From Clostridium thermobutyricum (lineage in GTDB: Bacteria > Bacillota > Clostridia > Ch29): a DNA stretch of 64,000 nucleotides. Both the position numbers and the translations under genes were made by a program. The stretch spans positions 14,030 through 78,029 of the forward strand of contig JAENYX010000003.1 of the NCBI GenBank assembly GCA_016841565.1, in the 5' to 3' direction. Each line of letters starts with the position of its first letter. Position 1 is the stretch's first letter. The notes below the pieces were generated by a model, which worked only from the letters and a program-made list of their open reading frames with translations, was not told where the DNA came from and searched no databases. Of the stretch, positions 11,072-47,900 are shown in pieces.

Positions 11072-11149
11072 GACTAATATTCACTTGTGTGGTTCCGGGG
11101 AGAGCTGTCGGCTTTTCCCCGGGTACCATTATACTGAGGAGGTAAAAAA

Positions 11150-21486: not shown

Positions 21487-21579
21487 AAATTTTATCCGCA
21501 TACTTTAGCAATTTAAAGAGCAGATGAGTACCGGCCGTATTATACATTGAGTTTATCTGAATCAGAAAGGGTGGTAATC

Positions 21580-22767: not shown

Positions 22768-22791
22768 CCTTAGTACAATCCGTTTAAAAAT

Positions 22792-22812
22792 CAATAATGA
22801 TAATCCAATTAT
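22792..22812. promoter_or_regulatory. palindrome AATGATAAT-cca-ATTATCATT upstream of tctC
   Basis: 9-bp perfect arms, 35 bp before the tctC start. Candidate operator. Confidence 0.35.
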
Positions 22813-22845
22813 CATTTTGATTATAAAAAAAAGGAGGTTTAAATC

Positions 22846-23823
22846 ATGAAAAAAGCCCTATCCTTAATGCTGGTAGTGGTTATGGCAGCGGCAATGCTGG
22901 TAGGTTGTTCGAGTGGTGGCAAGGAAGAAGCCCAATATCCAACAGAAACCATAACACTCTTGGTTCCTTTCTCAGCCGGAGGAGGAGCCGACCTGATGGC
23001 AAGAGCTTTGCAGCCTGCTCTGCAGGAAGCTTTAGGTGTATCAGTAGTTGTAGAAAACAAGACCGGAGCCAATGGCGGTATAGCAATGGCAGAATTGGCA
23101 AAGGCGAAGGCAGATGGATACACAATAATCCTTACTTCAACAGGTCCTTCAACAATCGGCCCGAATATTTCCGACATGGGTTACACCAATGAAAGCTTCG
23201 CACCAATCGCACAGTTAACCGACCTTCCGACCGGTTTGGCCGTACATAAGAGTAGCGGCATTACAAACCTGGATGAATTCTTCGCAGCAGCTGAGAAGAA
23301 GAGCGGTGCAATGACCTATGGTTCATCAGGCGCCGGGTCCACTCATAACCTTGCAGTTGAAGGCTTACTGCTTAGTATGGACAAAGTGGGACTGCTTACC
23401 CACGTATCCTTCGAAGGCGGTTCTCAGGCGGTTACTGCTCTGCTTGGGCAACAGGCGGATGCTTCGGCCAATATCCTGACAGAGCTCCTGCCATATGCCG
23501 AAACCGACTTCAACATTATCGGAATTGCATCGGGAGAAAGGTCATCAATCGACCCGGATATACCGACTTTCAAAGAGCAGGGATATGATACCGAACAATC
23601 CACATGGTACGGAATAGCAGCTCCTGCCGGAACTCCGGAAGAGGTTATCGCTTTGCTTGATACTACTATCAAGAATGCGCTTGAAGATCCTGAAATGATA
23701 GAAACCTTCGAAGTCAACCTGAAGACTCCAATACAGTATATGGATCATACTGCATTTGCGCAGAAATGGAATAATGCATACGAAAACAATGCAGAACTGG
23801 TGGAAGTACTTGGATTGAAATAG
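22846..23823 (+). CDS. tctC: tripartite tricarboxylate transporter substrate-binding protein (TctC/Bug family), lipoprotein
   Basis: Lipobox LVGCSSG and the Bug-family fold, followed by tctB and tctA. Confidence 0.8.
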   Translation: MKKALSLMLVVVMAAAMLVGCSSGGKEEAQYPTETITLLVPFSAGGGADLMARALQPALQEALGVSVVVENKTGANGGIAMAELAKAKADGYTIILTSTGPSTIGPNISDMGYTNESFAPIAQLTDLPTGLAVHKSSGITNLDEFFAAAEKKSGAMTYGSSGAGSTHNLAVEGLLLSMDKVGLLTHVSFEGGSQAVTALLGQQADASANILTELLPYAETDFNIIGIASGERSSIDPDIPTFKEQGYDTEQSTWYGIAAPAGTPEEVIALLDTTIKNALEDPEMIETFEVNLKTPIQYMDHTAFAQKWNNAYENNAELVEVLGLK

Positions 23824-23883
23824 CTGAATATTCCTATTGAAGGCCATACGGCCTTCAATAGGCCTTTATAAGGAGGTGACAGA

Positions 23884-24327
23884 ATGAAGAGTATAGGCGT
23901 TAACAGCATAATCGGTATTATCTTTATAGTTTTCAGCCTTTTCTGGAATACATTGATTGACAAACTACCCCAGGGTACAAAGCTGGCAGCCTATGGGCCA
24001 GGATTCTTTCCCAGGTTGGTTGCAGGGGGAATCATTGTCGTTTCAGTTTTATTGGTTATACAGGATTTGGTTAATAAGAATAAAAAGATCAAGTTCGAAT
24101 ATGAAAAAACCGATATCCTGAAAGTTATCGGCCTGATAGCAGTGATAATAGTATATCTTCTGGTCATGCCGACTTTTGGGTATGTAATCTCTACAATAGC
24201 CGCACTTGGTATCACACTGTGGTTATTTGGATTAAGAGATATAAAGACTTTCATTCTGGTATCCGTACTTTTTCCGATACTGTCAAACATACTGTTCCAG
24301 ACGGTATTGAAAGTAGGATTACCTTAA
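23884..24327 (+). CDS. tctB: tripartite tricarboxylate transporter small membrane subunit TctB
   Basis: 147 aa with 4 TM helices, located between tctC and tctA. Confidence 0.6.
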   Translation: MKSIGVNSIIGIIFIVFSLFWNTLIDKLPQGTKLAAYGPGFFPRLVAGGIIVVSVLLVIQDLVNKNKKIKFEYEKTDILKVIGLIAVIIVYLLVMPTFGYVISTIAALGITLWLFGLRDIKTFILVSVLFPILSNILFQTVLKVGLP

Positions 24328-24343
24328 ACAGGGAGGTGTTAAT

Positions 24344-25837
24344 ATGGGCTTGGTATTTGAGTATCTGACAATTACAAATATTCTTTTAAGTGCCATGGGT
24401 GCAATTGTTGGAATTGTATTTGGAGCAATCCCCGGGCTTACTGCAACTATGGGTGTTGCACTATTCCTTCCATTTACATTCAACCTTGATATTGTTCCTT
24501 CAATGGCGCTTTTGCTTGGAATATACGTTGGCGGTATTTATGGCGGGTCAATATCTGCAGTTCTTATAAAAACTCCGGGTACACCTTCTTCGGCGGCAAC
24601 GGTACTGGATGGTTACCCTCTGAATGAGAAAGGAAAAGCGTTTGATGCACTTTCTATGGCAACGGTTGCATCTTTCATAGCGGGAATCATCAGTTCAATT
24701 CTGCTTATACTGATATCTCCGCAGCTGGCCAAGCTTGCATTGAAGTTCGGGCCTGCAGAATACTTTGCGGTAGGACTGTTCGGGCTTAGTATGGTTGCCA
24801 GCTTATCGGCCAACAACTTCCTTAAAGGGATTCTTGCCGCACTTACAGGAGTATTGCTTTCATCCATTGGAATTGACGCCATAACTGGAACAATGAGGTT
24901 CACCTTTGGCAGTGTCAATATGGCAGGGGGACTGGACCTTATATCCTCTCTTATAGGACTCTTTGCAGTATCCCAGGTATTGGAAAAACTGGAGGGCATG
25001 ACAAAGGAAAGAGCCTTGGGGAACATAAAGAAGGTAACCGGCAAATTTGTAAGATTTGCTACTTTAAAGGAAAATGCGTTTAACATCCTGAGATCATCCA
25101 TAATTGGAACCTTTGTAGGTATAGTGCCTGCCACCGGTTCATCCATAGGGTCCTGGTTAAGCTACAATGAGGCAAAAAGGGTCTCCAAGCATCCAGAAGA
25201 ATTCGGACAGGGATCATTTGAGGGTATTGCTGCCTCCGAGGCCGGAAACAACGGGGTAACGGGAGGAGCATTGGTACCCTTGCTGACACTTGGAGTGCCG
25301 GGCGATGTCGTAACGGCAATTATGCTGGGAGCGCTTATGATACAGGGCCTGACCCCCGGACCCATGCTGTTCAAGGATCATCCTGACGTTGTTACAAGTA
25401 TCTATGTCATGCTTATTCTTGGCAATATATTCATGCTTCTGTGGGGATTGCTGGGAATCAACGTATTCGTAAAAGTACTGAAGGTACCTACAAACATACT
25501 GATGCCGTTGGTTCTGATGCTTTGCTTTGTAGGAGCATACGCAATAAACAACAATATATTTGACCTGAAGGTTGCGTTGGTATTGGGGATTATAGGGTAC
25601 CTGTTCAATAAGGTGGGTATTCCCACACCTCCCATGCTTCTTGGAATAATCCTGGGGCCCATTATCGAATTCAACTTCAGAAGGGCAATGACAATATCGC
25701 AAAACGACCTCTCAACGTTTATAACCAGGCCTATAAGCCTGACATTCTTATTAATCTCGATATTCTCTTTCGCATGGCCTGAGGTTTCTGCCTATATAAA
25801 AAATAAAAGGAAAATGAGAGGAAGTATTCAACAATGA
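24344..25837 (+). CDS. tctA: tripartite tricarboxylate transporter large permease TctA
   Basis: 497 aa polytopic permease with the internal duplicated motif typical of TctA. Confidence 0.85.
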   Translation: MGLVFEYLTITNILLSAMGAIVGIVFGAIPGLTATMGVALFLPFTFNLDIVPSMALLLGIYVGGIYGGSISAVLIKTPGTPSSAATVLDGYPLNEKGKAFDALSMATVASFIAGIISSILLILISPQLAKLALKFGPAEYFAVGLFGLSMVASLSANNFLKGILAALTGVLLSSIGIDAITGTMRFTFGSVNMAGGLDLISSLIGLFAVSQVLEKLEGMTKERALGNIKKVTGKFVRFATLKENAFNILRSSIIGTFVGIVPATGSSIGSWLSYNEAKRVSKHPEEFGQGSFEGIAASEAGNNGVTGGALVPLLTLGVPGDVVTAIMLGALMIQGLTPGPMLFKDHPDVVTSIYVMLILGNIFMLLWGLLGINVFVKVLKVPTNILMPLVLMLCFVGAYAINNNIFDLKVALVLGIIGYLFNKVGIPTPPMLLGIILGPIIEFNFRRAMTISQNDLSTFITRPISLTFLLISIFSFAWPEVSAYIKNKRKMRGSIQQ

Positions 25838-29225: not shown

Positions 29226-29600
29226 ATAAAAAGTTTTTTTGAAATGCAGCCCCTTTGGCTGCCATTATACTGCCGGATCTGCCCTTTTGGATGCAACACC
29301 CGGGTGCGGATTTGGCAGTTTTTTGCTGTCCATTTTCCGAGTCGGCAAGTGTAACCTCTCATAATACCGGGATACCGCTTGTACGAATACCGGCTCCGGC
29401 CCTTCTGTATTTACCTGGCAATGTAGAAAAGGAAGGCCGTTAAAAAGAAGCAAAGTGCAAGCTTAGCCATGCCTTGGTTGAAAAAAAGAGTGAATCTGGA
29501 AGAATGTGCACTGATACAGGAGAATTACCGGGAGCCCGGATTATAGGCTTACTGTCTGAAAAAAACACGTCAAAGGACGTATTTTTTTCAGCAATAAAAG

Positions 29601-29718
29601 CTGCCTCCGGTTAAAACCGGGGGCATAAGCATCAAGCAGGGTGAAAGCTTGGCGGAAAATCTTAAGGATCAAATGATATAAGGGTAATATGGTGTATCCG
29701 GCGGGGGAGACGGGGCTT
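29601..29718 (-). pseudogene. 3'-terminal remnant of a DUF2935 paralog: 19 residual codons (SGKAPSPPPDTPYYPYISFDP*) plus its hairpin terminator
   Basis: About 120 nt similar to 16925-17045. The minus-strand translation matches the C-terminus ISGKAPAPPPNTPYYPYII* of the intact DUF2935 gene. No upstream coding sequence remains. Confidence 0.5.
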
Positions 29719-29817
29719 TGCCGGATACACAAAGGAGGGTACGCCGGCCGGTGTACCCTCCCCTGGTATCATAGAAACAATACTACGCTTGCAAGCTGCA
29801 GGCTAAGCTCTGCTTAA

Positions 29818-29922
29818 TTACTTACAACCCGAAGCTCCGGCTGCAAAGAAGATAATGATAATAACCAGGAGCAAAAACAATACATCGTCACCGCAGCCAA
29901 AGAAATCTCCCAACCCGGACAC
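29818..29922 (-). CDS. small hydrophobic peptide (34 aa, MSGLGDFFGCGDDVLFLLLVIIIIFFAAGASGCK), resembles YjcZ-like sporulation peptides
   Basis: GTG start preceded by a GGAGGTG RBS at 7-nt spacing. Gly-rich N-terminus and a single hydrophobic helix. Below the 60-aa cutoff of the ORF track. Confidence 0.3.
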   Translation of the reverse strand: MSGLGDFFGCGDDVLFLLLVIIIIFFAAGASGCK

Positions 29923-30342
29923 TCGGTCCACCTCCTATACAAGCCATTGTTTTGGCAAGAAGTATATTGCAGAAAAAACCATTCATAGTCATTTTTCTAA
30001 TATTAAGATATTAAAGGCGCGAGGTTTTGGTTAATACAATTTTTTGATGTTTATGATTAAGCAGGTGGTGGGGAGAAAGGAGCAGCCGCCGTTAGGACGT
30101 AGTCATTTACTTATCGGAACGGTCATGGCATATCTGTCTGTTTTGGACGGATTTATGGGTTATTATAATGGATTTATGCTGTTTTTCCATTTTTATATCC
30201 GGAATTGCATTAATTTGTTGGAAAATATTAGGAGGAAACCCCCGGGGAATAGCAAATTTATTCAATATTATATTTAATAATACATACCTGATGTCTGGCA
30301 TACAGCTGATATGTAATAACAAAAAAACGGGGAGGGAGTTTA

Positions 30343-31356
30343 ATGAAAAAGAACTTTATGCTGATTACCGCTTTGCTTGCTGCGCTTTCAATGCTTTTTC
30401 CGGCAGGCTGTTCGGCACCGACCGATACTTCGGAGGAAACACCGGCTGAAGCTGCGGGGGATGAAAGGCTGTTTATTACCATAGGGACAGGTACGACCGG
30501 CGGTTCGTATTACCCGCTGGGCGGGGCAATGGCAAAGATTTGGACCGATAATATACCAAATGTCCATGCCACCGTTCAATCCACCGGCGGCACCAATCAG
30601 AACATCCAGTTGATGGAGGATAAGCAGGCCGAGGTAGGTTTTACCGATACCAAATACGTGCTGGCCTATGAAGGCAAGGATGTTTGGGAAGGTCGGCCCC
30701 AGACGTGGCTAAGGGGTCTGGTACCCCTTTACCCCGAGCCCACAAATATTCTTGTGGCCAAGGGTTCCGGGATAAAAACCCTTGAGGACTTCAGAGGCAA
30801 GCGCGTCTCCATCGGAGCAGTCGGAAGCGGTACCGAAAGTACATCAAGGGAGTTGTTCCAGGTTCTTGGGATGGATGTGGACAAGGACATCAAAGCCTTT
30901 ATGCTGGGGACCGGTGATACGGCCAAGGCGTTCCAGGACAGGCAGATTGATGCGGCTATACTAGTGGGGTCTTTGGGTATGTCCTCCATAGTAGAGCTGA
31001 CATCTTTAAATCTTGTGGATTATCTGGACCTGCCGGATGAGGTGTTCGAAAAAATACAAGAGGTGAATAATACATGGGTCAAGTTTACCATTCCCGCCGA
31101 CTATTACCTCAATCAGCCCAATCCGGTGAAAACCTATTCGGCATTCAACATAATATCAGTTCATGAGGACCTTCCGGAAGCTATCGCCTACCAAATGACA
31201 AAGGCCCTTTTTGAGCACAAAGTGGATCTTCTTGCGGTACGGCAGACCATGGAGAATATGACGCTGGAGAACGTGGAAAAGATTACAATACCAATACACC
31301 CCGGCGCCGTTAGGTATTATAAGGAAGTGGGCGCAAAACTGCCGGCCGGGTACTGA
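30343..31356 (+). CDS. TAXI-family TRAP transporter solute-binding lipoprotein (copy 2)
   Basis: Lipobox FPAGCSA. Paralog of the 10094 and 52152 genes, with the shared motif TGxTxGxYYPxGGA. Confidence 0.8.
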   Translation: MKKNFMLITALLAALSMLFPAGCSAPTDTSEETPAEAAGDERLFITIGTGTTGGSYYPLGGAMAKIWTDNIPNVHATVQSTGGTNQNIQLMEDKQAEVGFTDTKYVLAYEGKDVWEGRPQTWLRGLVPLYPEPTNILVAKGSGIKTLEDFRGKRVSIGAVGSGTESTSRELFQVLGMDVDKDIKAFMLGTGDTAKAFQDRQIDAAILVGSLGMSSIVELTSLNLVDYLDLPDEVFEKIQEVNNTWVKFTIPADYYLNQPNPVKTYSAFNIISVHEDLPEAIAYQMTKALFEHKVDLLAVRQTMENMTLENVEKITIPIHPGAVRYYKEVGAKLPAGY

Positions 31357-31431
31357 TACAACAAATATCCGGGAAATGCACGACTGTGCATTTCCCGGGA
31401 AACAACACCGATTGAGATAGGGGTTGAAAAT

Positions 31432-33402
31432 ATGGCTGTCGACAGCAGCATGCAGGATTATGACATGGAAAAAACAAAGGCGGAAGAGCTGGTCAAAAAA
31501 TACGATACCGAGTGGCGCTTCCGTACGGTTCTGCCGGACTGGCAGGGCAAGCTGACTGCCGCCTGGCTGATTGCAATGTCTTTGTTCCAGCTTTACACCT
31601 CAACCATAGGGCTGATGACCACAAATATACAGCGTACCTACCACCTGGGGTTCGCTATGTTTGTAATATTCCTGATTTATCCTTTCGGAAAGAATTCTCC
31701 AACCGGGCGTTTTTCGGTTCCTGATATGGCTCTGGCCGTAGCCAGTATATTCACAAATGGTTATCTGATAGTCAATTTCAACAGGATAGTGGAGCGGGGG
31801 GCTAAGGTAACCCATCTGGAACTGGTTCTGGGTGTGATAGCCATCCTGCTGGTGCTGGAAGCGGGCAGAAGGGTTCTGGGGTACGGGCTGCCTGTTCTTG
31901 CCGGTTTTTTTTTACTGTACTGCTATTTTGGAAGGTATGCTCCGGGGCTGTTCATACACAGGGGTTTTACAATAGAGAGGATAGTGCAGCATATGTACCT
32001 GGTTCCCGAGGGCATTTACGGGGTAGCCCTTGGGGTATCGGCAACCTTTGTATTCTTATTCATCCTCTTTGGTGCGTTTCTAAATGAGTCGGGGGGAGCC
32101 CGGTTTTTCAACGACTTTGCACTGGCCATGGCCGGGAGGATGGCGGGGGGGCCGGCCAAGGTGGCTATATTTGCAAGCGGCCTTCTTGGGACCATAAACG
32201 GCAGCTCCATAGCAAATACTGCAACCACCGGCGCCTTTACAATTCCGTTAATGAAAAAGGTGGGTTACAAGCCGCATTTCGCAGGGGCCGTTGAGGCTTC
32301 GTCATCAACGGGGGGACAGATAATGCCGCCGGTAATGGGGGCTGCCGCGTTTATAATGGCAGAGTTTCTGGGGGTTTCGTACATATCAATAATTAAAGCG
32401 GCTGCCATACCGGCCGTGCTGTATTATTACGGAGTATTTATAAGTGTCCATCTTGTGGCCCGGAAAGAGGGGCTCAAGGGATTGCCCAGGGAGCTGCTGC
32501 CCGACCTTCGGAAGGTCATGCTGACAAAAGGGCATCTGCTTTTACCCCTTGCCGTTGTGATATATCTGCTGATTTCGGGCAGGACACCGGTATTTGCTGC
32601 TTTCTGGGGCACACTCAGCGTTATTGCCGTCAGCTATTTGCGCAGGGAAACAAGAATGAGCCCTGGAAAAATACTGGCCGCACTCCAGCTGGGCGCCAGA
32701 TCGGCACTTGGAGTGGCTATTGCCTGCGCCGTTGTGGGATTTGTAATAGGGACTTCCTCGCTGACAGGGCTCGGGCTTAGCATTTCCAACAACCTGATAG
32801 AACTGGCCGGCGGGAACCTGCTGCTGACCCTTGTATTGGCCATGGTGGGGTCACTTATACTGGGTATGGGTCTGCCCACCACCGCAAACTATATAGTCAC
32901 TTCCACCATAGTGGCTCCGGCGCTGGTAAAGTTAGGCGTTCTGCCTATAGCGGCTCATTTATTTGTATTCTATTTCGGGATTATGGCAGACGTCACACCG
33001 CCGGTATGTCTTGCAGCCTTTACCGGGGCGGGTATTGCGGGGGCCAGCCCAAGCAGGACGGGGCTTACCGCCACAAAGCTTGCAATTGCGGCCTTTATCC
33101 TGCCGTATATGTTCGTTTATTCGCCGCAGCTGCTGCTGCATGAAGTCACATTGTCGGGGATAGTGCAGATACTGATAACCTCGGTAACAGGGATGACATG
33201 CATAGCGGGCTCAACTATGAATTACCTGATAATAGGGAACAATGCAGCTGAGAGGGTGCTGCTGCTGACAGGCGGCCTTTTGATGATAAAGCCGGGGACC
33301 TATACAGATCTGGCAGGCATGGGGATTGCAGGGTGTGTTGTTCTGGCCCAGTATTTCAGAAGGAAACGGCTGCAGGGGAGAGTCTCGGGTAAGGCGGATT
33401 GA
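31432..33402 (+). CDS. TRAP transporter fused permease (copy 2)
   Basis: 656 aa, paralog of the 11150 and 53690 genes. Confidence 0.85.
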   Translation: MAVDSSMQDYDMEKTKAEELVKKYDTEWRFRTVLPDWQGKLTAAWLIAMSLFQLYTSTIGLMTTNIQRTYHLGFAMFVIFLIYPFGKNSPTGRFSVPDMALAVASIFTNGYLIVNFNRIVERGAKVTHLELVLGVIAILLVLEAGRRVLGYGLPVLAGFFLLYCYFGRYAPGLFIHRGFTIERIVQHMYLVPEGIYGVALGVSATFVFLFILFGAFLNESGGARFFNDFALAMAGRMAGGPAKVAIFASGLLGTINGSSIANTATTGAFTIPLMKKVGYKPHFAGAVEASSSTGGQIMPPVMGAAAFIMAEFLGVSYISIIKAAAIPAVLYYYGVFISVHLVARKEGLKGLPRELLPDLRKVMLTKGHLLLPLAVVIYLLISGRTPVFAAFWGTLSVIAVSYLRRETRMSPGKILAALQLGARSALGVAIACAVVGFVIGTSSLTGLGLSISNNLIELAGGNLLLTLVLAMVGSLILGMGLPTTANYIVTSTIVAPALVKLGVLPIAAHLFVFYFGIMADVTPPVCLAAFTGAGIAGASPSRTGLTATKLAIAAFILPYMFVYSPQLLLHEVTLSGIVQILITSVTGMTCIAGSTMNYLIIGNNAAERVLLLTGGLLMIKPGTYTDLAGMGIAGCVVLAQYFRRKRLQGRVSGKAD

Positions 33403-33445
33403 GGATGTTCCGGCGATGGTAATGGCTGATGTTAGAGGAACAGAG
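33375..33445 (+). repeat. direct repeat A (3' end of the TRAP permease gene plus ~45 nt downstream); its partner lies at 37603-37672
   Basis: About 42 of 49 identical in the core GGATTG.GGAT.TTCCGGCGATGGTAATGGCTG.TGT.AG, with homology extending upstream across an indel. Confidence 0.7.
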
Positions 33446-33562
33446 TGTGCATGCTGTACTCCTTATATCAGTTGGCATGATTACTTCCGGAATGTATTAA
33501 TCTTTTGGAAAATGCATAACATAGAAAAGCAGTAGAAAAATCTTATAAATACAGGTGGTAGC

Positions 33563-35092
33563 ATGCTATTTAGGAGACATAAGGACAAGGAGACAGGCAA
33601 AGGAAAACAGCGGACCGGCATTTCCAAATACAAGCTGAGCGACTCACTGGATGCGAATGTACAGCTGTTTCAGCAGATATTCAATGATGATGATACGTTT
33701 AAAGTAAGGTACTTTGAAAATCAGCAGCATCCGCAGGTGAGGTGCTGCGTTTTATTTATTGAATGTATGGCCGATAATGAAATCATTAATGAGAATATAA
33801 TACAACCCATTGTTCAGAATACCATGCTCGAAAACTCCGGCGATATCCTGAGCAGTTTGCAGAACCAGGTGATTGTTTCGAATCACGTAGCAAAGACAAC
33901 AGATATTGATAAGCTTTCGGCCGCAATAATTCGTGGTGATACGGTGCTTTTCCTGGACGGTTGGCCGGTTGGGCTGATGATATGCTCAAAGGGATGGGCA
34001 TCCAGACCAATAAAAGAACCCCAGGGTGAAAGGGTTGCCAGTGGGCCAAGGGAAGGCTTTACAGAGTCCATTATGGTCAATCTCACCATGGTAAGAAGAA
34101 AGCTGGAAACACCCGATCTGAAAATGAAGATTATGACAATTGGGGTACAAACCAATACAAAAGTATGTGTTTGCTATGTGGAAGGCATTGTGCACCGGAG
34201 GATACTGGACGAAGTGTACAAAAGGCTGAAAGGCATTAATATAGACGGCATTCTGGATGCCGCGTATATTAATGAGATCATAAAGGATTCCCCGTTTTCG
34301 CCATTTAACACAATAGGAAACACCGAGAGGCCTGATATAGTGGCCGCAAAGCTGTTAGAAGGGCATATAGCCGTAGTTGTTGACGGCACACCCGTTGTTT
34401 TAACAATACCCTTATTATTTGTGGAAAATTTCCAATCCAATGAGGATTATTATGTTAATTTTTATTTTGCCACAACCAACAGACTATTAAGGGTAATGGG
34501 CTTTATTATTACAATTAGCGTCCCTGCAGTTTATACGGCTTTGGTGACATTTCACCAGGAGGCCATACCGACACCTTTGCTGTTAAGCATTTCCGCGGCA
34601 AGGCAGGGAGTACCTTTTCCTACCATTGTTGAAGTCATATTGCTTTTACTTATCTTTGAAATATTGAGAGAAACGGGATTACGAATGCCATACTTTGTAG
34701 GGCAGACATTAAGCATAATCGGAGCTATTGTATTAGGAACGGCATCGGTGGAAGCAAAGCTGGTAAGTGCCCCTATAGTTATAGTAGTTTCAATTACAGC
34801 TATTACCGGTCTTATGATACCGGGGATAAAAGTTGCAGCAATTTTTTTAAGGTTTATCTTTTTGTTTTTATCGGCCTTTATCGGATTATATGGTTATATA
34901 TTTGGAGTTATGGGTTTCTTGGTTTATTTGTGCCAATTGCGGTCGTTCGGAGTACCCTACATGCTGACATTGACCACTCTTGACCCAGGTGAATTAAAGG
35001 ATACGGCAGTAAGAGCACCATGGTGGTATATGAAGCTCAGACCCAAACTCATTTCAGCCAACAGGGTAAGGCAGGCAAACGGAGGCAAATAA
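33563..35092 (+). CDS. spore germination protein, GerA/GerKA family (A subunit)
   Basis: 509 aa with a soluble N-domain then 5-6 TM helices, and the GerAA-family region EGHIAVVVDGTPVVLTIP. Confidence 0.85.
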   Translation: MLFRRHKDKETGKGKQRTGISKYKLSDSLDANVQLFQQIFNDDDTFKVRYFENQQHPQVRCCVLFIECMADNEIINENIIQPIVQNTMLENSGDILSSLQNQVIVSNHVAKTTDIDKLSAAIIRGDTVLFLDGWPVGLMICSKGWASRPIKEPQGERVASGPREGFTESIMVNLTMVRRKLETPDLKMKIMTIGVQTNTKVCVCYVEGIVHRRILDEVYKRLKGINIDGILDAAYINEIIKDSPFSPFNTIGNTERPDIVAAKLLEGHIAVVVDGTPVVLTIPLLFVENFQSNEDYYVNFYFATTNRLLRVMGFIITISVPAVYTALVTFHQEAIPTPLLLSISAARQGVPFPTIVEVILLLLIFEILRETGLRMPYFVGQTLSIIGAIVLGTASVEAKLVSAPIVIVVSITAITGLMIPGIKVAAIFLRFIFLFLSAFIGLYGYIFGVMGFLVYLCQLRSFGVPYMLTLTTLDPGELKDTAVRAPWWYMKLRPKLISANRVRQANGGK

Positions 35093-35094
35093 CA

Positions 35095-36246
35095 ATGAGA
35101 AGAAAAGTATTTATTCCTATGCTGTTGATGATAAATATGACAATATTGACAGGATGCTGGAGCTACAGAGAGATTGACAGACTTTCAATTGTAGCAGGTG
35201 CGGCAGTTGACAAGGGTGAAGATGGAAAGTGCATTTTTACATTTGAAATTATAGATTTGCAGGAAGGCGGAAGAGATACAAATATTAAATCAAGACTATT
35301 GGAATCAGAAGGGTACACCATATTTGATGCAGTCAGAAATTCGCTGAAATTCACTGCCCCAAGGCCGTATTTCGGCCATATGGAGGTTGTTATCATAAGC
35401 CAGGAAATAGCAAGGGATGGGGTGATTGAAATTCTTGATTTTTTGAACCGCGACGCTGAGCCAAGGCTTACTGTAGATCTTTTGCTTTCCAAAGAGCAGA
35501 CTGCAAAGGAAATATTGAAAGCACAGAGTACTACAACTGATATACGTTCTTTTGAAATTTACGAAATGCTGGATGTCCAGAAACATTTGTCAAAATCACC
35601 CAAAGTTGAAGTTTACCAGTTCATTAATGAACTGCCATGCGAGGGATCCTCACCGTTTCTGCCTGCTATACGGATAACAGAAACGGCCGGTATAAAAACG
35701 ACAGAACTGTCGGGAACCGCAGTATTCAAGGAGGATAAGCTTATAGGATTTCTTGATGAAGAGGAGACCAAATATTTTTTATTTACAAAAGATAATATAA
35801 AGGGCGGCCTGCTTGCTTTAGAAAACCTTCCAAGCGCGAACAATGTAAATATATCCTTTGAGATATTCCATAACAAAACAGAGATAAAACCCGTGTATTC
35901 CAATGGAGAATTATCAATAAATATTGAGACAAAAACACAAATTACACTTGCTGAACAGGGTACCGAGTTGAACTTTACAAATGAAAGAGGAAGGTTAACC
36001 CTGAAGAAAGAAATGGAAGAGTTTCTTAAAGCAAATATACAAAAAGTGATTCAAAGGGTGCAGAAGGATTTTGCCGTTGACATTTTTGGATTTGGGAGTA
36101 TTGTAAACGCAGAGATGCCGACCCTATGGAAAGAGATAGGTCGTGACTGGAACGATATCTTTGCAGATTTGGATGTCAATGTGAATACAATTATAGAAAT
36201 CAGGGGCTCCGGGTTGTTATCCGACCCAATTAAGGTAGGGATGTAG
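35095..36246 (+). CDS. spore germination lipoprotein, Ger(x)C family (C subunit)
   Basis: Lipobox ILTGCWS, then GerAC-family architecture. ATG 35095 is preceded by GGAGG and overlaps the A-subunit stop region. Confidence 0.75.
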   Translation: MRRKVFIPMLLMINMTILTGCWSYREIDRLSIVAGAAVDKGEDGKCIFTFEIIDLQEGGRDTNIKSRLLESEGYTIFDAVRNSLKFTAPRPYFGHMEVVIISQEIARDGVIEILDFLNRDAEPRLTVDLLLSKEQTAKEILKAQSTTTDIRSFEIYEMLDVQKHLSKSPKVEVYQFINELPCEGSSPFLPAIRITETAGIKTTELSGTAVFKEDKLIGFLDEEETKYFLFTKDNIKGGLLALENLPSANNVNISFEIFHNKTEIKPVYSNGELSINIETKTQITLAEQGTELNFTNERGRLTLKKEMEEFLKANIQKVIQRVQKDFAVDIFGFGSIVNAEMPTLWKEIGRDWNDIFADLDVNVNTIIEIRGSGLLSDPIKVGM

Positions 36247-36252
36247 TTCATC

Positions 36253-36474
36253 ATGTTATTGGTAATGATTACTTTTGTCGGTGTATTATTTATATTGACA
36301 GACCTTATCCCTGTTTATCAAAACAAGCGGTGGAAGCTGTTCTGGGTATATTCTGCCATCATGGCCTTTGTATATGTACTGACTATATTCATCACAATGG
36401 GCATAAAACTGCCCAGCCCGGCTGTTCCATTGAGAAACTTAATAACGGAAATATTCGGAATATACCCGGAATGA
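36253..36474 (+). CDS. small two-TM membrane protein inside the germinant-receptor operon (possible D subunit)
   Basis: 73 aa with two hydrophobic helices, located between the C and B subunit genes. Confidence 0.4.
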   Translation: MLLVMITFVGVLFILTDLIPVYQNKRWKLFWVYSAIMAFVYVLTIFITMGIKLPSPAVPLRNLITEIFGIYPE

Positions 36475-36510
36475 TGGTATGACTATAAATGATACTGAAA
36501 GAGGAAAGCC

Positions 36511-37596
36511 ATGGAAAGCGAGATAATTACAAAAAAGCAGTGTATTGCAATAATGGTTGCATTTTTACTGGGCAGTTCTCTTGTATTAGGAGCCGGTGGT
36601 GAGGCTAGAAGAGATGCCTGGATGGCGGTTTTAGCTGCAATGGTTATGTCATTACCTGTATTTTTTGTTTATGCAAGGCTGGTCTCGCTTTTTCCCGGTA
36701 AGGGTCTTTACGAAATATTGCCTGTTGTTTTTGGGAGTACCATTGGCAAGCTGGTGGTACTGATGTACATATGGTATGCATTCCATTTAGGGGCTCTGGT
36801 AATCAGGAACTTTTCGGAGTTTATTATGATAGTTTCATTACCTGATACACCCCAGTACGCCGTTGCAATTTTCATGACAGTTTTAGGCATCTGGGCAGTA
36901 AAGGCGGGGATTGAAGTAATTGGACGGTGGTCTGCGATGATGCTTCCGGTTATAATTATGGCCATTTTATTATTATCCCTATTGTTGATTCCTAGCATGG
37001 AATTGAAAAATATTAAACCTGTCTTAAGCGAAGGCATCATGCCTGTAATGATGGCTGCTTTTTCTACATTTTCCTTTCCCTTTGCCGAGATGGTGTTATT
37101 CACAGTGATATTCGGAAATCTAAAAAGCAACATTAGTGCGTATAAAATATATTACTGGAGCTTATTTATCGGAGGAACGATTATTTTATGGGTTACGGTG
37201 AGAAACCTTCTTGTTTTGGGTGCAGCAAATGTCTTTATCATGTATTTCCCGTCCTATGTCTCGGTACGGCTTATCAATATAGGTAATTTCCTGCAAAGAA
37301 TTGAGGTATTGGTGGTACTTGTTTTTATGTTGAGCGGCTTTGTAAAAGTATGCATATGCCTGCTGGCTGCCGGAAGAGGAATAGCAAAAGTATTGAACTT
37401 CAACGATTATCGCGGGATTGTTGCTCCGGTGGGATTGCTGATGATGATATTTTCGCTAATCGTTTACAGCAATACCAAAGAAATGTTCGAATGGGCAAGC
37501 AGAATTTATCCATTCTATGCAATACCCTTTGAAGTTATCCTCCCCCTGACCATTTGGATTGCCGCGGAAATCAAGGTTGGTTTGGTGAAAAATTAG
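36511..37596 (+). CDS. spore germination protein, GerAB/GerKB family (B subunit, APC-superfamily permease)
   Basis: 361 aa with ~10 TM helices and a GerAB-like N-terminus (ITKKQCIAIMVAFLLGSSL). Confidence 0.8.
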   Translation: MESEIITKKQCIAIMVAFLLGSSLVLGAGGEARRDAWMAVLAAMVMSLPVFFVYARLVSLFPGKGLYEILPVVFGSTIGKLVVLMYIWYAFHLGALVIRNFSEFIMIVSLPDTPQYAVAIFMTVLGIWAVKAGIEVIGRWSAMMLPVIIMAILLLSLLLIPSMELKNIKPVLSEGIMPVMMAAFSTFSFPFAEMVLFTVIFGNLKSNISAYKIYYWSLFIGGTIILWVTVRNLLVLGAANVFIMYFPSYVSVRLINIGNFLQRIEVLVVLVFMLSGFVKVCICLLAAGRGIAKVLNFNDYRGIVAPVGLLMMIFSLIVYSNTKEMFEWASRIYPFYAIPFEVILPLTIWIAAEIKVGLVKN

Positions 37597-37602
37597 ATGG
37601 TG

Positions 37603-37672
37603 GGCAGACTTCCGGGAGAACGGCCGGATTGCGGATATTCCGGCGATGGTAATGGCTGCTGTCAGGTGGAAA
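37603..37672 (+). repeat. direct repeat B (degenerate copy of the TRAP-permease 3' end) immediately after gerKB
   Basis: See repeat A. Confidence 0.7.
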
Positions 37673-37853
37673 TTAGACGTGTGATTTTTCACAAAGTGGG
37701 GGCAGGTGTATTGGCACCGGCAAAGGGTTTTTTGGAGTTATGTAGAAGTGGTTAGATAGTTTATACGGCAAGAAGGGAAGAATTCCGGTTTTCATTAAAC
37801 CGGCAGAGGGGATAATAACCGGCAGGCATCTATTTTGACCGAGGGGGGTCCTT

Positions 37854-39575
37854 ATGTCAGAGCTGTTGGGGAAGCACTATGTAGAGCAGTTGAAAACGGC
37901 TTTTGAAGCCGCATATAGTGGGATTGTGCTGGTGGATACAAGAATAAGCATTGTGGCATTGAACCCGGCGGCTGAAAGAATATTGGGCGTCAAACGGGGT
38001 GAAGCCGTAGGGAAATCTTTTATGGACCTGGTTCCCGAAAGCGGTTTTCCCGAAGTGTTGGAACAAAAAAGGAGTCAGGCGGGCTGCAGCCTGAAGATTA
38101 GGGAAAAGGTTTATCTCAGCAACAGAAGCCCTGTTATTGTTAGCGGCCAATTGGTGGGTGCAGTGGCGGTTATGCAGGATATGACCGAATTAAACCAATG
38201 CAGGATTCAACTGGAAGAAACCAGAACGCTCAAAAACGTTCTGGAGGCTATATTGAATTCGGCTTACGAAGGGGTTGTCGTTGTTGATGAGAACGGAATT
38301 ATTACCATGTTTAACGATGCGTACTGCAGATTTCTCAATGTTAAGCAAGAGGACGTAGTTGGGAAGCACGTGACCGATGCCATAGAAAATACCCGCATGC
38401 ATGTGGTGCTGAAAACCGGAAAGGCTGAGATCCGCCATATACAGCGTATCCATGGCCATGATATGATATGTGACAGGATACCTATAAAGGAAGACGGGAA
38501 GATAACCGGCGCCGTAGGAAAGGTTTTGTTCAGGGATGTTTCGGAGGTGGACGAGCTGCTGAAACAAACCGAACATTTAAAAGAACAGTTGGAATACTAT
38601 AAAAACGAACTAGCAAAGGAACGGAAAACTAAGTATTCCCTTGATAACATAATCGGTCAGAGCCGGGTGATAGCTGTCTTGAAGGAGCTGGCGGGAAAAT
38701 GCGCCAAGAGTTCATCTACCGTTCTGATACGCGGAGAAAGCGGGACCGGCAAGGAGTTGCTGGCCCGTGCCATTCACAACCTTAGCCCAAGAAGAAATAA
38801 CCCGCTTATAAAGGTGAACTGTGCTGCCGTGCCCGAAAACCTGTTGGAGTCAGAGCTTTTCGGGTATGAGGAGGGTGCATTTACCGGTGCCAAAAAAGGT
38901 GGGAAGCTTGGGAAGTTCGAACAGGCCCGGGGCGGCACCATTTTTCTCGATGAAATAGGGGACATGCCGGTCAAGATGCAGGCCAAGCTATTACGGGTAC
39001 TGCAGGAGAAGGAAATCGAAAGGCTGGGCAGCACCGGAACCGTCAAGGTGGATGTAAGGGTGATAGCAGCCACCAACAGGAACCTGGAGGAATTGATTGC
39101 CGAGGGGAGATTTAGAGAGGATCTGTTTTACAGGCTGAACGTAATAAGCCTTGAGATGCCTTCGCTAAGAAGCAGGAAGGAAGATATTCATCTCCTGGTA
39201 GATTTCCTGGTTCAGAAGCTGTGCAAAAATATGGGTATCGGCAGAAAAGCCATCAGCCCGGCGGCCTATGACATTTTGTTCCGCTATTCCTGGCCGGGTA
39301 ATGTGAGAGAGCTGGAAAACGTGCTTGAAAGGGCGCTGAATGTGATTGACAATGATACAATCAATCCTGAGCATCTGCCCTATTACATCCGTCAGCCTAA
39401 GGATTTGTTGAAGGACGGTGAATTTCACCTGAAATCCATAGTCGAGGATACCGAAAAGGAGGTAATGAGAAGGGCATTCAGTGTCGCCGGAGGTAATGCT
39501 TTAGAAGCGGCCAAGCTGCTTGGGATTAGCAAATCGACCTATTATGAGAAGGCTGCCAAATACGGGTTACAGTGA
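37854..39575 (+). CDS. sigma-54-dependent transcriptional activator with tandem PAS domains
   Basis: Two PAS folds, an AAA+ domain with GESGTGKE and ESELFGYEEGAFTGA, and a C-terminal Fis-type HTH. Confidence 0.85.
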   Translation: MSELLGKHYVEQLKTAFEAAYSGIVLVDTRISIVALNPAAERILGVKRGEAVGKSFMDLVPESGFPEVLEQKRSQAGCSLKIREKVYLSNRSPVIVSGQLVGAVAVMQDMTELNQCRIQLEETRTLKNVLEAILNSAYEGVVVVDENGIITMFNDAYCRFLNVKQEDVVGKHVTDAIENTRMHVVLKTGKAEIRHIQRIHGHDMICDRIPIKEDGKITGAVGKVLFRDVSEVDELLKQTEHLKEQLEYYKNELAKERKTKYSLDNIIGQSRVIAVLKELAGKCAKSSSTVLIRGESGTGKELLARAIHNLSPRRNNPLIKVNCAAVPENLLESELFGYEEGAFTGAKKGGKLGKFEQARGGTIFLDEIGDMPVKMQAKLLRVLQEKEIERLGSTGTVKVDVRVIAATNRNLEELIAEGRFREDLFYRLNVISLEMPSLRSRKEDIHLLVDFLVQKLCKNMGIGRKAISPAAYDILFRYSWPGNVRELENVLERALNVIDNDTINPEHLPYYIRQPKDLLKDGEFHLKSIVEDTEKEVMRRAFSVAGGNALEAAKLLGISKSTYYEKAAKYGLQ

Positions 39576-39610
39576 TTCCGGAAATTCGGAAAACAGTCCG
39601 GATTTCCGGA

Positions 39611-39638
39611 CTGTTGCACGATACAGTCTGTGCAACAG
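39611..39638. promoter_or_regulatory. candidate enhancer (UAS) for the PAS sigma-54 activator: CTGTTGCAC-N10-GTGCAACAG
   Basis: Perfect 9-bp inverted repeat centred ~108 bp upstream of the -24 element at 39733. The TGT-N-ACA / TGCAC-N-GTGCA style is typical of bEBP sites. Confidence 0.45.
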
Positions 39639-39707
39639 CAAGATGAGCTTGATGGTTGATTTACATTACGGTGATTCCGAAAATCTGGAATAGCATTAAC
39701 CAAAAAG

Positions 39708-39728
39708 ACCGGCAAAGCCGGTTTTTTT
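39708..39728 (+). terminator. rho-independent terminator (ACCGGC-aaa-GCCGGT plus T7) ending the regulator transcript
   Basis: Short GC stem directly followed by TTTTTTT, 4 nt before the sigma-54 promoter. Confidence 0.6.
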
Positions 39729-39731
39729 GGT

Positions 39732-39746
39732 TGGCATCAAAATTGC
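39732..39746 (+). promoter_or_regulatory. sigma-54 promoter TGGCAT-N5-TTGCT
   Basis: Canonical GG/GC spacing, ~140 nt upstream of the thiolase start. Confidence 0.7.
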
Positions 39747-39886
39747 TCATATATGAGAAAAGGAGATAAGCGTTGTGCCGGTTAGCTGTCGGCAGTCGGG
39801 AGTTGGCAGCCGGTAACCGGCAGCTATATTCTTCAGAATGGACATGATTTGTGGAGTAAAGAAAATTATGGAGGGAGGAAAACATT

Positions 39887-41065
39887 ATGACAGAGGTCGT
39901 TATTGTCAGCGCCGTAAGAACACCTATAGGAACTTTTGGCGGAAGCTTTAAGGATGTTTCTGCAATCAGGCTTGGTGTAGCTGCTGTCAAAGAAGCTATG
40001 GTACGAGCAAATGTAAAACCTGAAATGATTGAAGAAGTAATATTCGGAAATGTGCTTCAGGCGGGTCTTGGCCAAAATGTAGCACGGCAAGTAGCAATCG
40101 GGGCAGGAATTCCTGTAGAAGTGCCATCAATGACTATTAATAAGGTTTGCGGCTCAGGCTTGAAAACAGTTAGCCTGGCTGCTCAGGCAATTATGCTGGG
40201 AGAAGCGGATGTGGCCATTGCCGGCGGTACGGAAAATATGAGCATGTCACCATATATCGTACCTAAAGCGAGATGGGGACACAGGATGGGAGACGGAACA
40301 ATAGTTGACTACATGGTTCAGGATGGTTTGACGGATATTTTCAACAACTATCACATGGGGATTACTGCCGAGAATATTGCAGAGAGGTGGAACATTACAA
40401 GACAGGAACAGGATGAATTCGCCCTGGAAAGCCAGTTAAGGGCAGAGAAAGCAATAAAGGGCGGAAGATTTAAAGATGAGATAGTACCTGTTGAAATTCC
40501 CCAGAGAAAAGGCGACCCAATAGTTGTAGATACCGATGAACACCCTCGCTTTGGTTCTGCCATAGAAGGTTTATCAAAGCTAAAGCCTGCTTTTAAGAAG
40601 GATGGAACAGTAACAGCGGGTAATGCATCAGGAATAAATGATGGAGCCGCAGCGCTTGTTTTAATGTCAAAGGAAAAAGCTGAAAGACTGGGATTAAAAC
40701 CATTGGCCACCATAGTATCCTTTGCATCAGCCGGAGTGGATCCCCGGATTATGGGATATGGTCCTGTTCCTGCATCAAAAAAGGCATTAACCAAAGCTAA
40801 AATGACCATTAAAGACATAGACCTGGTTGAAGCAAATGAAGCCTTTGCGGCACAATCCCTGGCGGTAGCAAGAGACTTGGGACTGGATGCTGAGAAGACA
40901 AATGTGAATGGCGGAGCTATTGCCCTGGGCCACCCTATTGGATGTTCGGGAGCAAGAATTCTTATTACATTGATTCATGAAATGGTAAAAAGGGATAAGA
41001 AAACCGGCCTCGCGACTCTTTGTATTGGCGGAGGGCAAGGTACTTCGGTAATTGTTAAGAGATAA
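39887..41065 (+). CDS. acetyl-CoA C-acetyltransferase (thiolase II)
   Basis: N-terminus [12 protein letters not shown], active-site region NKVCGSGL and the C-terminal GGGQG motifs. 392 aa. Confidence 0.9.
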
Positions 41066-47886: not shown

Positions 47887-47895
47887 AAGGGAGGG
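47857..47895 (+). repeat. cassette-junction repeat, copy 1 (toxin 3' end plus immunity RBS): GGATTTAAAAACCCAAGACCACTTAATTAAAAGGGAGGG
   Basis: 35 of 39 identical to 48461-48499. Confidence 0.8.
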
Positions 47896-47900
47896 ATCAT

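Follow-up and report, generated by a model that had tools for sequence, protein, structure and literature searches.

The window, the whole 64-kb stretch of DNA analysed here, encodes the A (GerA), C (Spore_GerAC) and B (Spore_permease) subunits of a germinant receptor side by side, as expected of a GerA-family receptor operon. A TRAP permease gene precedes these genes, a sigma-54 activator gene follows them, and a direct repeat stands near both ends of the unit. The features referred to below are as follows.

30343..31356, + strand, TAXI-type TRAP solute-binding protein gene, lying upstream in this lineage (Pfam NMT1_3 1-289/289, E 6e-79)
31432..33402, + strand, fused 4TM/12TM TRAP permease gene (Pfam DctM, E 2e-96)
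33361..37662, + strand, ger module of 4.3 kb, the stretch common to lineage Y (92% identity)
33395..33435, + strand, left repeat copy (R1 core), containing the TRAP stop codon TGA at 33400-33402
33493..33562, + strand, conserved ger promoter and 5' leader (putative; 83% over 66 nt to L016:896-960)
33563..35092, + strand, gerA-family A subunit gene, gerKA (Pfam GerA, E 5e-165)
35095..36246, + strand, gerC-family lipoprotein subunit gene, gerKC (Pfam Spore_GerAC_N and Spore_GerAC, E 7e-42 and 6e-39)
36253..36474, + strand, 73-aa ORF between gerC and gerB (gene call in L003; no Pfam match)
36511..37596, + strand, gerB-family permease-like subunit gene, gerKB (Pfam Spore_permease, E 1e-50; stop codon 37594-37596)
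37625..37665, + strand, right repeat copy (R2 core), starting 29 nt past the gerB stop
37854..39575, + strand, PAS/sigma-54 activator gene, the downstream neighbour (Pfam)

The 383-aa gene model of gerC is the same as that called in L003, a contig matching the window, and in L017, and the 73-aa ORF is possibly, judged only by its position, a small D-type subunit. From the left repeat copy it is ~60 nt to the conserved ger promoter region and ~130 nt to gerA, both of which are downstream. This promoter region is nearly invariant between this lineage and a second one, termed lineage Y, and it contains at ~33495-33530 what we take, by eye and against the literature consensus, to be a candidate forespore (sigma-G type) motif, GTATTAAT-N-CATAACATA; the stretch GTATTAAT...CATAACATA is common to lineage Y and to L016, a more distant ger operon. 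Downstream, the sigma-54 activator belongs with the following thiolase/CoA-transferase operon and not with the TRAP or ger genes: relatives with other upstream genes keep the order activator-thiolase-CoA transferase-SDR-GntP-3HCDH, and a perfect sigma-54 promoter consensus is present at 39732-39747. No integrase, transposase, recombinase or reverse transcriptase (RT) family was matched among the 48 window ORFs scanned against Pfam, of which 8 were without a Pfam match and 4 (21547-25837) carried only precomputed assignments from L003.

Extent and copy number of the direct repeat

A repeat search of 33000-38200 returned one outstanding direct repeat, formed by 33395-33435 and 37625-37665, with 37 of 41 positions identical (90%). 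The 21-mer TTCCGGCGATGGTAATGGCTG is exact in both copies and, at ≤3 mismatches, occurs twice in the 64-kb window versus 0 times in 100 shuffles. A search with a profile of all known copies (nhmmer --max) found no third copy, either within the window or among 30 related loci, and no solo copy was seen in any of these loci. REP- or MITE-like elements have many dispersed copies; the sequence covered here, 64 kb plus the related loci, has the two copies and none elsewhere, so that the first-pass annotation's refuting observation, recurrence at many unrelated loci, was not made in it. Across 185,579 representative genomes (one per GTDB species) the exact 21-mer gave only two matches, within unrelated genes. 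Both fall inside unrelated coding sequence by translation, one of it parA-like by eye, and they were set aside as chance. A degenerate repeat pattern found 0 matches in metagenome and viral collections; as the pattern had been verified on the known copies, those collections are without these organisms.

The first-pass annotation had described a repeat of ~60 nt flanking the ger genes. Its 41-nt core is real, whereas the ~25 nt on its left are indistinguishable from chance. This left extension (33370-33394 against 37597-37624, with a 3-nt indel) is only ~55–60% identical by manual column count and was not significant in shuffle tests (p=0.19 in this genome and 0.98 in the second lineage), and the similarity over ~10 nt to the right of the core was likewise not significant. 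The statistically supported length of the repeat is ~41–44 nt, not ~60–70 nt.

The core is a GC-rich run of RRY triplets (GGY GAT GGT AAT GGC TGC TG). Differences between the two copies are A/C, G/A, A/C and T/C, and those between strains are mostly C/T or G/A. GC content is 0.55–0.59 in the repeat, 0.51–0.53 in the TRAP gene, 0.38–0.42 in the ger genes and 0.39 in the second lineage. In this respect the repeat is like the TRAP gene and unlike the ger genes, which would fit an origin in TRAP-type DNA. GC and GC3 were also considered as a sign of foreign origin and were not decisive, the ger genes lying ~1 SD below the window mean.

The ger block in a second chromosomal context

Lineage Y is represented by nine contigs, most of them short and some ending before the ger block; one, L021, spans the whole block. 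There, L021:9805-14099 corresponds to window 33361-37662 with 92.2% identity over 4303 nt (blastn), and both repeat copies are present. The block sits between pyrBI and an araC-type gene, the TRAP gene is absent, and the flanking genes (alaDH, pyrB and pyrI on one side; araC, DUF2000, SASP and clpB on the other) have nothing in common with the window. Homology in L018 and L019 begins at the same left boundary as in L021, and the lineage Y pyrI contigs that reach far enough all show pyrI, then the left repeat, then ger. The first-pass view of the ger genes as a discrete, cassette-like unit therefore holds: the block is bounded near both repeat copies and recurs at 92% in a different chromosomal context. 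Because both copies are present in the lineage Y block, where TRAP is absent, the repeat belongs to the ger module and, as judged from these alignments, travels with it and not with the TRAP gene. L016 (76% nucleotide identity) matches window 33493-37588 only; it has the same promoter and the repeat at neither end.

Relative to the block ends, the left copy lies 34 nt inside, which puts the left boundary ~30 nt beyond the significant part of the repeat, and the right copy lies at the end, within ~3 nt. To the left of the block, lineage Y carries a 154-nt GC-rich stretch that is unrelated to TRAP (tblastn and blastn negative) and folds with z-scores of +1.2 and +0.3; a search there for a TRAP or gerB pseudogene remnant found none. 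No integrase family was matched among the genes called on the 25-kb lineage Y contig.

An empty site, with TRAP followed directly by the activator or pyrI followed directly by araC, would show the direction and mechanism of the block's move; none was found among the relatives' loci examined. In the closest TRAP relatives (80% and 77%) other genes follow or the contig ends, and in the closest activator relatives (86% and 84%) other genes precede; the contigs L004 and L014, both from a single sample, share no overlap. Among the nine pyrI contigs, every one that extends past the intergenic region of pyrI is occupied by the ger block. Further searches returned only a 49% relative (GerB protein scan of metagenome contigs), no match to the ger block in plasmid and phage collections (blastn) and, in the literature, nothing relevant on ger operons flanked by direct repeats.

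Age of the duplication and variation between strains

Over the ~28 nt to the left of the core, orthologous copies differ at 8/28 and 8/30 positions and paralogous copies at 12/27 and 16/27, and the 3-nt indel and end motifs are copy-specific and common to both lineages. By these signatures in the sequence, the left and right copies are seen to have been distinct before the blocks of the two lineages diverged, and the duplication is old. The 38-nt core behaves differently, with 4/38 differences between the copies within a genome and 5–8/38 between orthologues; as copies within a genome are as close as, or closer than, orthologues, gene conversion or chance is needed to account for the core.

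Between strains, nothing in the region varies as much as the repeat core, whereas the promoter next to it hardly changes. In this species, 5 SNPs in 66 nt separate two strains, with 5 transitions in the right copy; lineage Y has three repeat alleles, one of them with a 6-nt deletion, whereas the sequence adjacent to the repeat is ~99% identical. Divergence between strains of this species is 4.1% inside the ger block versus 0.2–0.5% outside, with the step falling between 37656 and 37828, and a third strain displays mosaic exchange inside the block. This pattern suggests that the ger block has had a history separate from that of its flanks in this species. On the right, block and repeat core end within ~3 nt of each other, and the divergence step falls at the same place, which could hint at a mechanistic link between repeat and boundary; the probability of such a coincidence by chance was estimated at roughly 5–10%.

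The TRAP permease tail

The family-conserved part of the TRAP permease ends at RRKR (33358-33369), where the homology with lineage Y begins (33361), and the tail LQGRVSGKAD with its stop codon (33370-33402) lies inside the ger module. That homology between the lineages starts where TRAP conservation ends is more easily reconciled with a junction than with a tail native to the permease. C-termini of TRAP homologues vary after R/K-rich motifs (such as RRKR, RKKR or RRKK). A repeat-like tail was absent from the C-termini of the 30 closest TRAP homologues, a weak test given that the nearest has 80% amino acid identity, and the TRAP 3' flanks of two relatives had no similarity to the repeat (shuffle p 0.5–0.9). 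One of the 3' UTRs examined, that of L005, had seemed repeat-like by eye, a likeness that the shuffle tests rejected (p 0.5–0.9).

These results go against the proposal of the first-pass annotation that the repeat is host DNA from the 3' end of the TRAP gene, duplicated as a target when the ger cassette was inserted. Both copies occur in lineage Y between pyrBI and araC with no TRAP gene, and neither the tails of the 30 closest homologues nor the 3' flanks of the two relatives contain the repeat. Moreover, the left and right signatures are common to both lineages, which indicates that the two copies had diverged from each other by the time the block moved, a state that a recent target duplication would not produce. 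A TRAP-derived duplication of the repeat is unlikely.

Discussion

The reading that we favour, with modest confidence, is that the ger operon was relocated horizontally and that its flanks hold an internal duplication which is old and probably neutral. The two repeat copies are parts of the operon's own 4.3-kb block (33361-37662), which would have moved or been horizontally transferred as a whole between chromosomal contexts at least once, and which in this species lies between the TAXI-TRAP transporter operon and the sigma-54 activator operon. Its left junction falls directly after the conserved RRKR, such that the permease reads 10 codons into the block and stops at the TGA in the left repeat copy. 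As for its origin, the repeat may stem from a simple-sequence stretch, GC-rich and built of RRY triplets, that was duplicated long ago. It is apparently non-coding and unstructured, and it presumably mutates readily, by slippage, by transitions and perhaps now and then by gene conversion from one copy to the other. Apart from providing the stop codon of TRAP, it is probably functionless. We infer that the block arrived by illegitimate recombination after horizontal transfer and that the repeat is neutral.

A functional role for the repeat is the first thing to be weighed against neutrality. It may be a cis element used twice, either as a protein-binding site flanking the operon or as a 3'-end or stability element of the TRAP and ger RNAs, and it is true that both copies are kept in two lineages and several strains and that the right copy comes directly after a stop codon. 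We nevertheless regard this as very improbable. Rfam gave no match at the repeat in the region, the whole window or the lineage Y locus; single-copy folds on the + strand had z-scores of -0.95 to +0.5, which are not significant; the consensus fold of seven aligned copies reached only -3.1 kcal/mol with no useful covariation; and no U-tract follows either copy, as one would after an intrinsic terminator. The core varies most between strains beside an almost invariant promoter, and L016, the nearest relative without the repeat, keeps that same promoter. Taken with the hypervariable core, the lack of an Rfam match, fold or covariation speaks against the conserved 3'-end RNA element offered by the first-pass annotation, and an element shared by the two 3' ends is further disfavoured by the left copy lying upstream of the conserved ger promoter and, in lineage Y, at the 3' end of no gene. 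Even less credible, to the point of being nearly discounted, is that the repeat encodes a short Cys/Gly-rich peptide (~...DCGxSGDGNGCC), either added to the C-terminus of the upstream protein or made from a small ORF of its own. Most copies have an open + frame, the indels are 3 and 6 nt, the frame of the left copy is continuous with TRAP and that of the right copy is in phase after the gerB stop; however, the in-frame stops differ (in the left copy TGA after KAD; NG* versus GCC* versus read-through), the ORFs of 20, 23 and 52 aa have no consistent start or ribosome-binding site, most substitutions are non-synonymous, and a second frame is just as open, as is the minus strand, which is expected for RRY-triplet sequence.

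The remaining alternatives concern how the block came to be where it is. The TRAP context may be ancestral: the 3' end of the TRAP gene would have taken up ger, with ~40–65 nt of its tail and 3' UTR duplicated in the event, and lineage Y would later have received the block with both copies from a donor of this arrangement. The left copy does overlap the TRAP stop codon in frame with TRAP, the GC content of the repeat (0.55–0.59) resembles the TRAP gene and not the ger genes or lineage Y (0.39), the start of the tail, LQGRV, is faintly like two homologue tails (RRKKLQRR and RKKRLAGGV), and the repeat here may reach ~10 nt to the right of the shared block, an extension that is not significant. 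Set against this, the left copy in lineage Y adjoins the 154-nt GC-rich non-TRAP stretch, which points to a third donor context outside TRAP; the lineages become homologous exactly where conserved TRAP sequence stops, as at a junction; no TRAP relative has the sequence, weak as that test is with the nearest at 80% amino acid identity; and no recombinase or transposase that might duplicate 40+ nt was found among the ORFs scanned against Pfam. We know of no insertion mechanism that duplicates 40+ nt without a recombinase or transposase, and consider this account unlikely. A little harder still to accept is that the repeats act as att-like sites, or as terminal recognition sequences, of a non-autonomous ger cassette that is moved in trans by a recombinase encoded elsewhere, in the manner of a CIME, or exchanged between strains. 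Element-borne att copies replace the 3' ends of genes, as the left copy does here, and direct repeats of the attL/attR type are found at or near both ends of a block present in two contexts; on the right the block and the repeat end within ~3 nt of each other, strain divergence changes at that place (4% versus 0.5%), and there is mosaic exchange inside the block in the third strain. However, no integrase family was found in the scanned window ORFs or the 25-kb lineage Y contig genes, the two insertion sites are unrelated and so offer no common attB, and a circle with one repeat entering a naive site would split the repeat, yet both full copies are present in both contexts. In addition, ~30 nt separate the left boundary of the block from the significant core, the core is poorly conserved with no dyad symmetry or hairpin, and the 30 loci yielded no solo copy. 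In its more specific form, that the ger operon is a non-autonomous cassette delimited by direct repeats and moved or swapped in trans by a recombinase, the idea is quite improbable.

As in a horizontally acquired or relocated operon or 'genomic islet' without mobility genes, a self-contained ger operon with its own putative promoter occurs in different contexts, with a GC content of 0.41 compared to 0.50–0.52 in its neighbours and strain divergence far above that of its flanks; it differs in having an internal 41-nt direct repeat near both ends and one junction at which a neighbouring gene runs in frame into the block. Target-site duplications of transposons likewise place direct repeats around an inserted segment and are usually 2–15 bp, whereas the ger repeat is far longer, came along with the segment to an unrelated site instead of arising from the target, and is accompanied by no transposase among the ORFs scanned; the repeat search found no inverted repeats at the block ends. 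Integron cassettes (attC) are similar in that the repeat follows the stop of the last gene and a second copy stands ahead of the unit, but the ger repeat has no imperfect palindrome, no integrase was found among the ORFs scanned, and the unit comprises four genes under a putative promoter of their own. To our knowledge integrons are not typical of Firmicutes, and this reading was rejected for want of an integrase and a hairpin (+ strand z -0.95 to +0.5; consensus -3.1 kcal/mol). Also rejected were a template/variable repeat (TR/VR) pair of a diversity-generating retroelement, as no RT family was present in the ORFs scanned and the mismatches are not confined to adenines, and IS200/IS605-type ends, as there is no conserved hairpin. 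A CIME is a decayed integrative element that keeps attL and attR and has lost its integrase (PMC5704250). The ger block resembles one in holding cargo between direct repeats of a few tens of bases, in having no integrase inside it and in a left repeat that supplies the 3' end of the adjacent gene; it differs in that its two hosts have no common target gene (TRAP/activator versus pyrBI/araC), no solo att is seen, and the repeat is 90% identical and hypervariable, with full, copy-specific copies in both contexts. A precedent for an operon for a spore property moving between strains as a unit is the spoVA2mob operon, which is reported to be carried by a Tn1546-type transposon in Bacillus (PMC5133452). 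That element is a bona fide transposon; the ger block yielded neither a transposase nor transposon ends, and it carries a GerA-family receptor operon.

Germinant receptors decide which signals wake a spore, and the gain, exchange and diversification of ger operons shape the niche of a spore-former. In the case described here, a complete ger operon changed its chromosomal address between lineages, and within one species its alleles are ~ten times more divergent than their surroundings; together these observations point to germinant receptors being exchanged as units. If the repeats did mediate mobility, for which the case is weak, they would define a new kind of cassette, and spore-formers could exchange germinant specificities as cassettes. 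The locus also indicates that a neighbouring gene, in this instance the TRAP permease, can gain a C-terminal tail and stop codon from an arriving block. On present evidence, the flanking repeat is a useful marker of the ger unit rather than its engine.

The repeat and its gene neighbourhood

A repeat search across 33000-38200 identified a direct repeat at 33395-33435 and 37625-37665, in which 37 of 41 nt are identical, far above the short chance matches. The 21-mer TTCCGGCGATGGTAATGGCTG is present without mismatch in each copy; at up to three mismatches it occurs at only these two sites in the 64-kb window and in none of 100 shuffles, so that the repeat described in the first-pass annotation does exist. 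Its extent needed revision, as the additional leftward stretch of ~25 nt, reached across a 3-nt indel, was only ~55-60 % identical by our own column count on the alignment and showed no significant similarity in shuffle tests. This leaves a supported repeat of ~41-44 nt. The principal features are as follows.

31432-33402: fused TRAP permease, DctM-type (Pfam), adjoined by a TAXI-type binding protein gene (Pfam); its stop TGA, 33400-33402, lies inside the left repeat copy
33361-37662 (+): ger block, including genes with GerA, GerAC and Spore_permease matches (Pfam)
36253-36474: 73-aa ORF between gerC and gerB, no Pfam match; called as a gene in the related contig L003 and not in L017 or L021
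36511-37596: last ger gene, Spore_permease-type (Pfam); the right repeat copy starts 29 nt past its stop
Downstream of ger: PAS/sigma-54 activator gene, then thiolase gene (Pfam)

Judged by its position, the 73-aa ORF may encode a small receptor subunit of the D type. The surroundings of the operon are metabolic, with three TAXI-TRAP systems, three sigma-54 activators and TctABC. The TAXI-TRAP systems (10094-13021, 30343-33402 and 52137-55642) are paralogous, each pairing an NMT1_3 binding protein with a fused DctM permease, and the third has an additional DUF1850 gene. At 39732-39747, downstream of the PAS/sigma-54 activator and upstream of the thiolase operon, the sequence matches the sigma-54 promoter consensus perfectly (TGGCATCAAAATTGCT), and sites with one mismatch, at 52097-52112 and 7230-7245, precede the third TAXI-TRAP operon and a dehydrogenase gene behind a PrpR-type activator. 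The compositional outliers of the window are two low-GC ORFs without Pfam match at 46579-48260 (435 aa, GC 0.40; 119 aa, GC 0.29, GC3 0.13), possibly a small foreign insert.

One ger block in two chromosomal contexts

GerA proteins >90 % identical to that of the window were found on two groups of contigs. Lineage W comprises the window, L003 and L017, all three with the order TRAP-ger-activator. In lineage Y (L018-L029, from ENA, JGI and Logan samples) the ger operon lies behind alaDH (minus strand), pyrB and pyrI and ahead of an araC-type gene, DUF2000, a SASP gene and clpB, and every contig that reaches far enough contains the ger block. By blastn, L021:9805-14099 matched window 33361-37662 at 92.2 % over 4303 nt, with both repeat copies present and no other match to the window in the rest of the 21.5 kb fetched; in L018 and L019 the match starts at the identical left position, 33361.

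The left limit of the shared block lies within or just past the RRKR codons (33358-33369) of the TRAP permease, which encode its last family-conserved residues, and the 30 closest TRAP homologues with C-termini inspected have short, unrelated tails past comparable R/K-rich motifs. It follows that block DNA encodes the tail of the permease (its last ten residues, LQGRVSGKAD) together with the stop codon; the counterpart of this DNA in lineage Y lies in the pyrI-gerA intergenic region. No empty site, that is, a context without the ger block, was found in the relatives examined, and the nearest relatives of the TRAP and activator genes have different neighbours.

Directly left of the block in L021 lies a 154-nt patch (L021:9651-9804) with a GC content of 0.51 in a contig of 0.39, in which we found no ORF, Rfam match, significant fold or similarity to the window. 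This patch is probably donor DNA transferred together with the block. Directly past the pyrI stop (L021:9587-9605, with equivalent sites in L018-L029) lie tandem copies of a heptamer, ACGAGAC or ACGAGAT, numbering ~2 to 5 across nine lineage Y contigs.

Age of the duplication

Alignment of ten repeat copies from three W and three Y strains revealed left-specific and right-specific features common to both lineages, namely the sequence adjoining the core on its left side, the indel of 3 nt and the right end. In the ~28 nt left of the core, orthologous copies differ at 8/28 and 8/30 positions and paralogous copies at 12/27 and 16/27. The two copies had thus diverged from each other before the blocks of the two lineages split, and both were on the block when its context changed. 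They cannot therefore have been duplicated anew at each insertion, and the pattern also speaks against integration of a circle carrying one repeat. Within the 38-nt core, orthologous copies differ at 5-8 positions and paralogous copies at 4; copies within a genome are at least as close as orthologues, a pattern over few sites that would fit occasional gene conversion between them. A more distant ger operon on contig L016 (76 % nucleotide identity), flanked by lepB and spoIIIA, has only 33493-37588 in common with the window; the same putative promoter motif directly follows the lepB terminator there, and the repeat is absent from both ends.

Divergence between strains

The ger block has a history of its own within the species: in lineage W, divergence between the window and L003 changes sharply across it.

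Divergence between the window and L003
21436-29500: 0.19 %
29961-33360: 0.47 %
33361-33747: 0 %
33748-37596: 4.1 %
37597-37662 (right repeat): 7.6 %
37854-40492: 0.45 %

On the right, divergence drops between 37656 and 37828, at or just past the right repeat, and homology to lineage Y stops at 37662, where this drop also falls. That two boundaries coincide here is the chief argument that the repeat may have a mechanistic role; on the left, neither boundary matches the significant repeat core. Both W alleles of the block are about equally far from lineage Y. The third strain, L017, is window-like with an L003-type patch of 350 nt at 36121-36476, which spans the 3' end of gerC together with the 73-aa ORF. 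One species has a mosaic and two ger alleles ~4 % apart between flanks >99.5 % identical, which suggests recombination or diversifying selection acting on the receptor. GerA itself has 509 aa in the window, ending 2 nt ahead of gerC (35020-35095), and 511 aa in L003, overlapping the gerC start (L003:13619-13667), owing to substitutions near the stop. The intergenic region 29501-29960, which precedes the gene for the TAXI binding protein, forms another patch with sharp limits, hypervariable or replaced, with 14 % divergence from L003 (66 differences in 460 nt) in surroundings of 0.2-0.5 %.

Nature and origin of the repeat

The core consists of consecutive RRY triplets (GGY GAT GGT AAT GGC TGC TG) and is rich in GC, the repeat regions having a GC content of 0.55-0.59 vs 0.35 in the adjacent putative promoter, and it is the most variable spot of its neighbourhood. 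The right copy differs between the window and L003 at five positions in 66 nt, all transitions, and the left copy has three alleles in lineage Y, one with a 6-nt deletion, amid intergenic and promoter DNA that is ~99 % identical. Several short-read contigs terminate inside the repeat. A role as a functional cis element has a low probability, and the 3'-end RNA element that had been proposed was not borne out: the repeat had no Rfam match, single copies folded no more stably than shuffled sequence (z -0.95 to +0.5), a consensus fold computed from seven copies reached -3.1 kcal/mol and neither copy is followed by a U-tract. It is similarly improbable that the repeat encodes a small peptide. Several frames are open on both strands, as the RRY-triplet composition would lead one to expect, and the stops, starts and lengths of these ORFs are inconsistent between copies. 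At both copies (33370-33435 and 37597-37668) the plus frame keeps the phase of the gene upstream, reading ...LQGRVSGKAD* behind TRAP and MVGRLPGERPDCGYSGDGNGCCQ... behind the gerB stop, with indels of 3 and 6 nt between copies; this phasing is most likely a by-product of the same composition.

That the repeat arose as a duplication of the TRAP 3' end, with the W context ancestral, was suggested by the position of the left copy over the TRAP stop, and we consider it improbable. Both copies occur in lineage Y (L021) without TRAP, no TRAP remnant was found beside the block there, and the 3' flanks of the two closest readable TRAP relatives showed no similarity to the repeat (p 0.5-0.9), just as the homologue tails are unlike it. 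Of the original proposal of a ger insertion bracketed by duplicated TRAP sequence, the cassette-like unit stands, given its two contexts, and the TRAP derivation is not supported. The repeats might instead be the att-like termini of a cassette that is moved in trans, resembling a CIME (as defined in PMC5704250), but this too has a low probability. The coincidence at the right repeat speaks for it, and direct repeats at the ends are the one defining feature of att-flanked elements that the block was seen to share. Pfam scans covered 48 of the 52 window ORFs (8 of the 48 without a match at the thresholds used) and detected no integrase, transposase, recombinase or reverse-transcriptase family among them; the four others, at 21547-25837, are HMGL-like and TctC/B/A genes according to the matching contig L003. 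No match to the ger block was found in plasmid and phage collections. Occurrence at many unrelated loci, which would mark a generic repetitive element, was not seen: a profile search gave no further copy in the window or 30 fetched loci, the complete genome of the organism being outside this search, and the exact 21-mer was present in only 2 of 185,579 representative genomes, each time inside an unrelated coding sequence.

Interpretation

The best-supported reading of these comparisons is that a self-contained ger block was relocated or horizontally transferred at least once. On this reading it carries, upstream and downstream of the genes, copies of an unstable simple-sequence stretch that was duplicated within it long ago. 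In lineage W the block adjoins the TRAP permease gene at its end and supplies the tail and stop codon of that gene. The 154-nt GC-rich patch left of the block, being unrelated to TRAP, suggests a third context, not a TRAP one, as the source of the Y copy. The ger genes have a lower GC content (0.38-0.42) than their immediate W neighbours (0.48-0.53), yet lie only ~1 SD below the window mean, so composition does not indicate which way the block moved; as no empty site was found, its mechanism is inferred.

Islands are commonly flanked by direct repeats located at the 3' ends of genes, and the ger block resembles a small islet without mobility genes. Where defining features were tested, the repeat lacks those of a target-site duplication, a DGR pair or a structured RNA element, and the block those of an integron cassette. 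Spore-trait operons that move as units are already known, one being spoVA2mob on a Tn1546 transposon (PMC5133452). We regard the interest of the finding as modest, unless exchange turns out to be mediated by the repeats.
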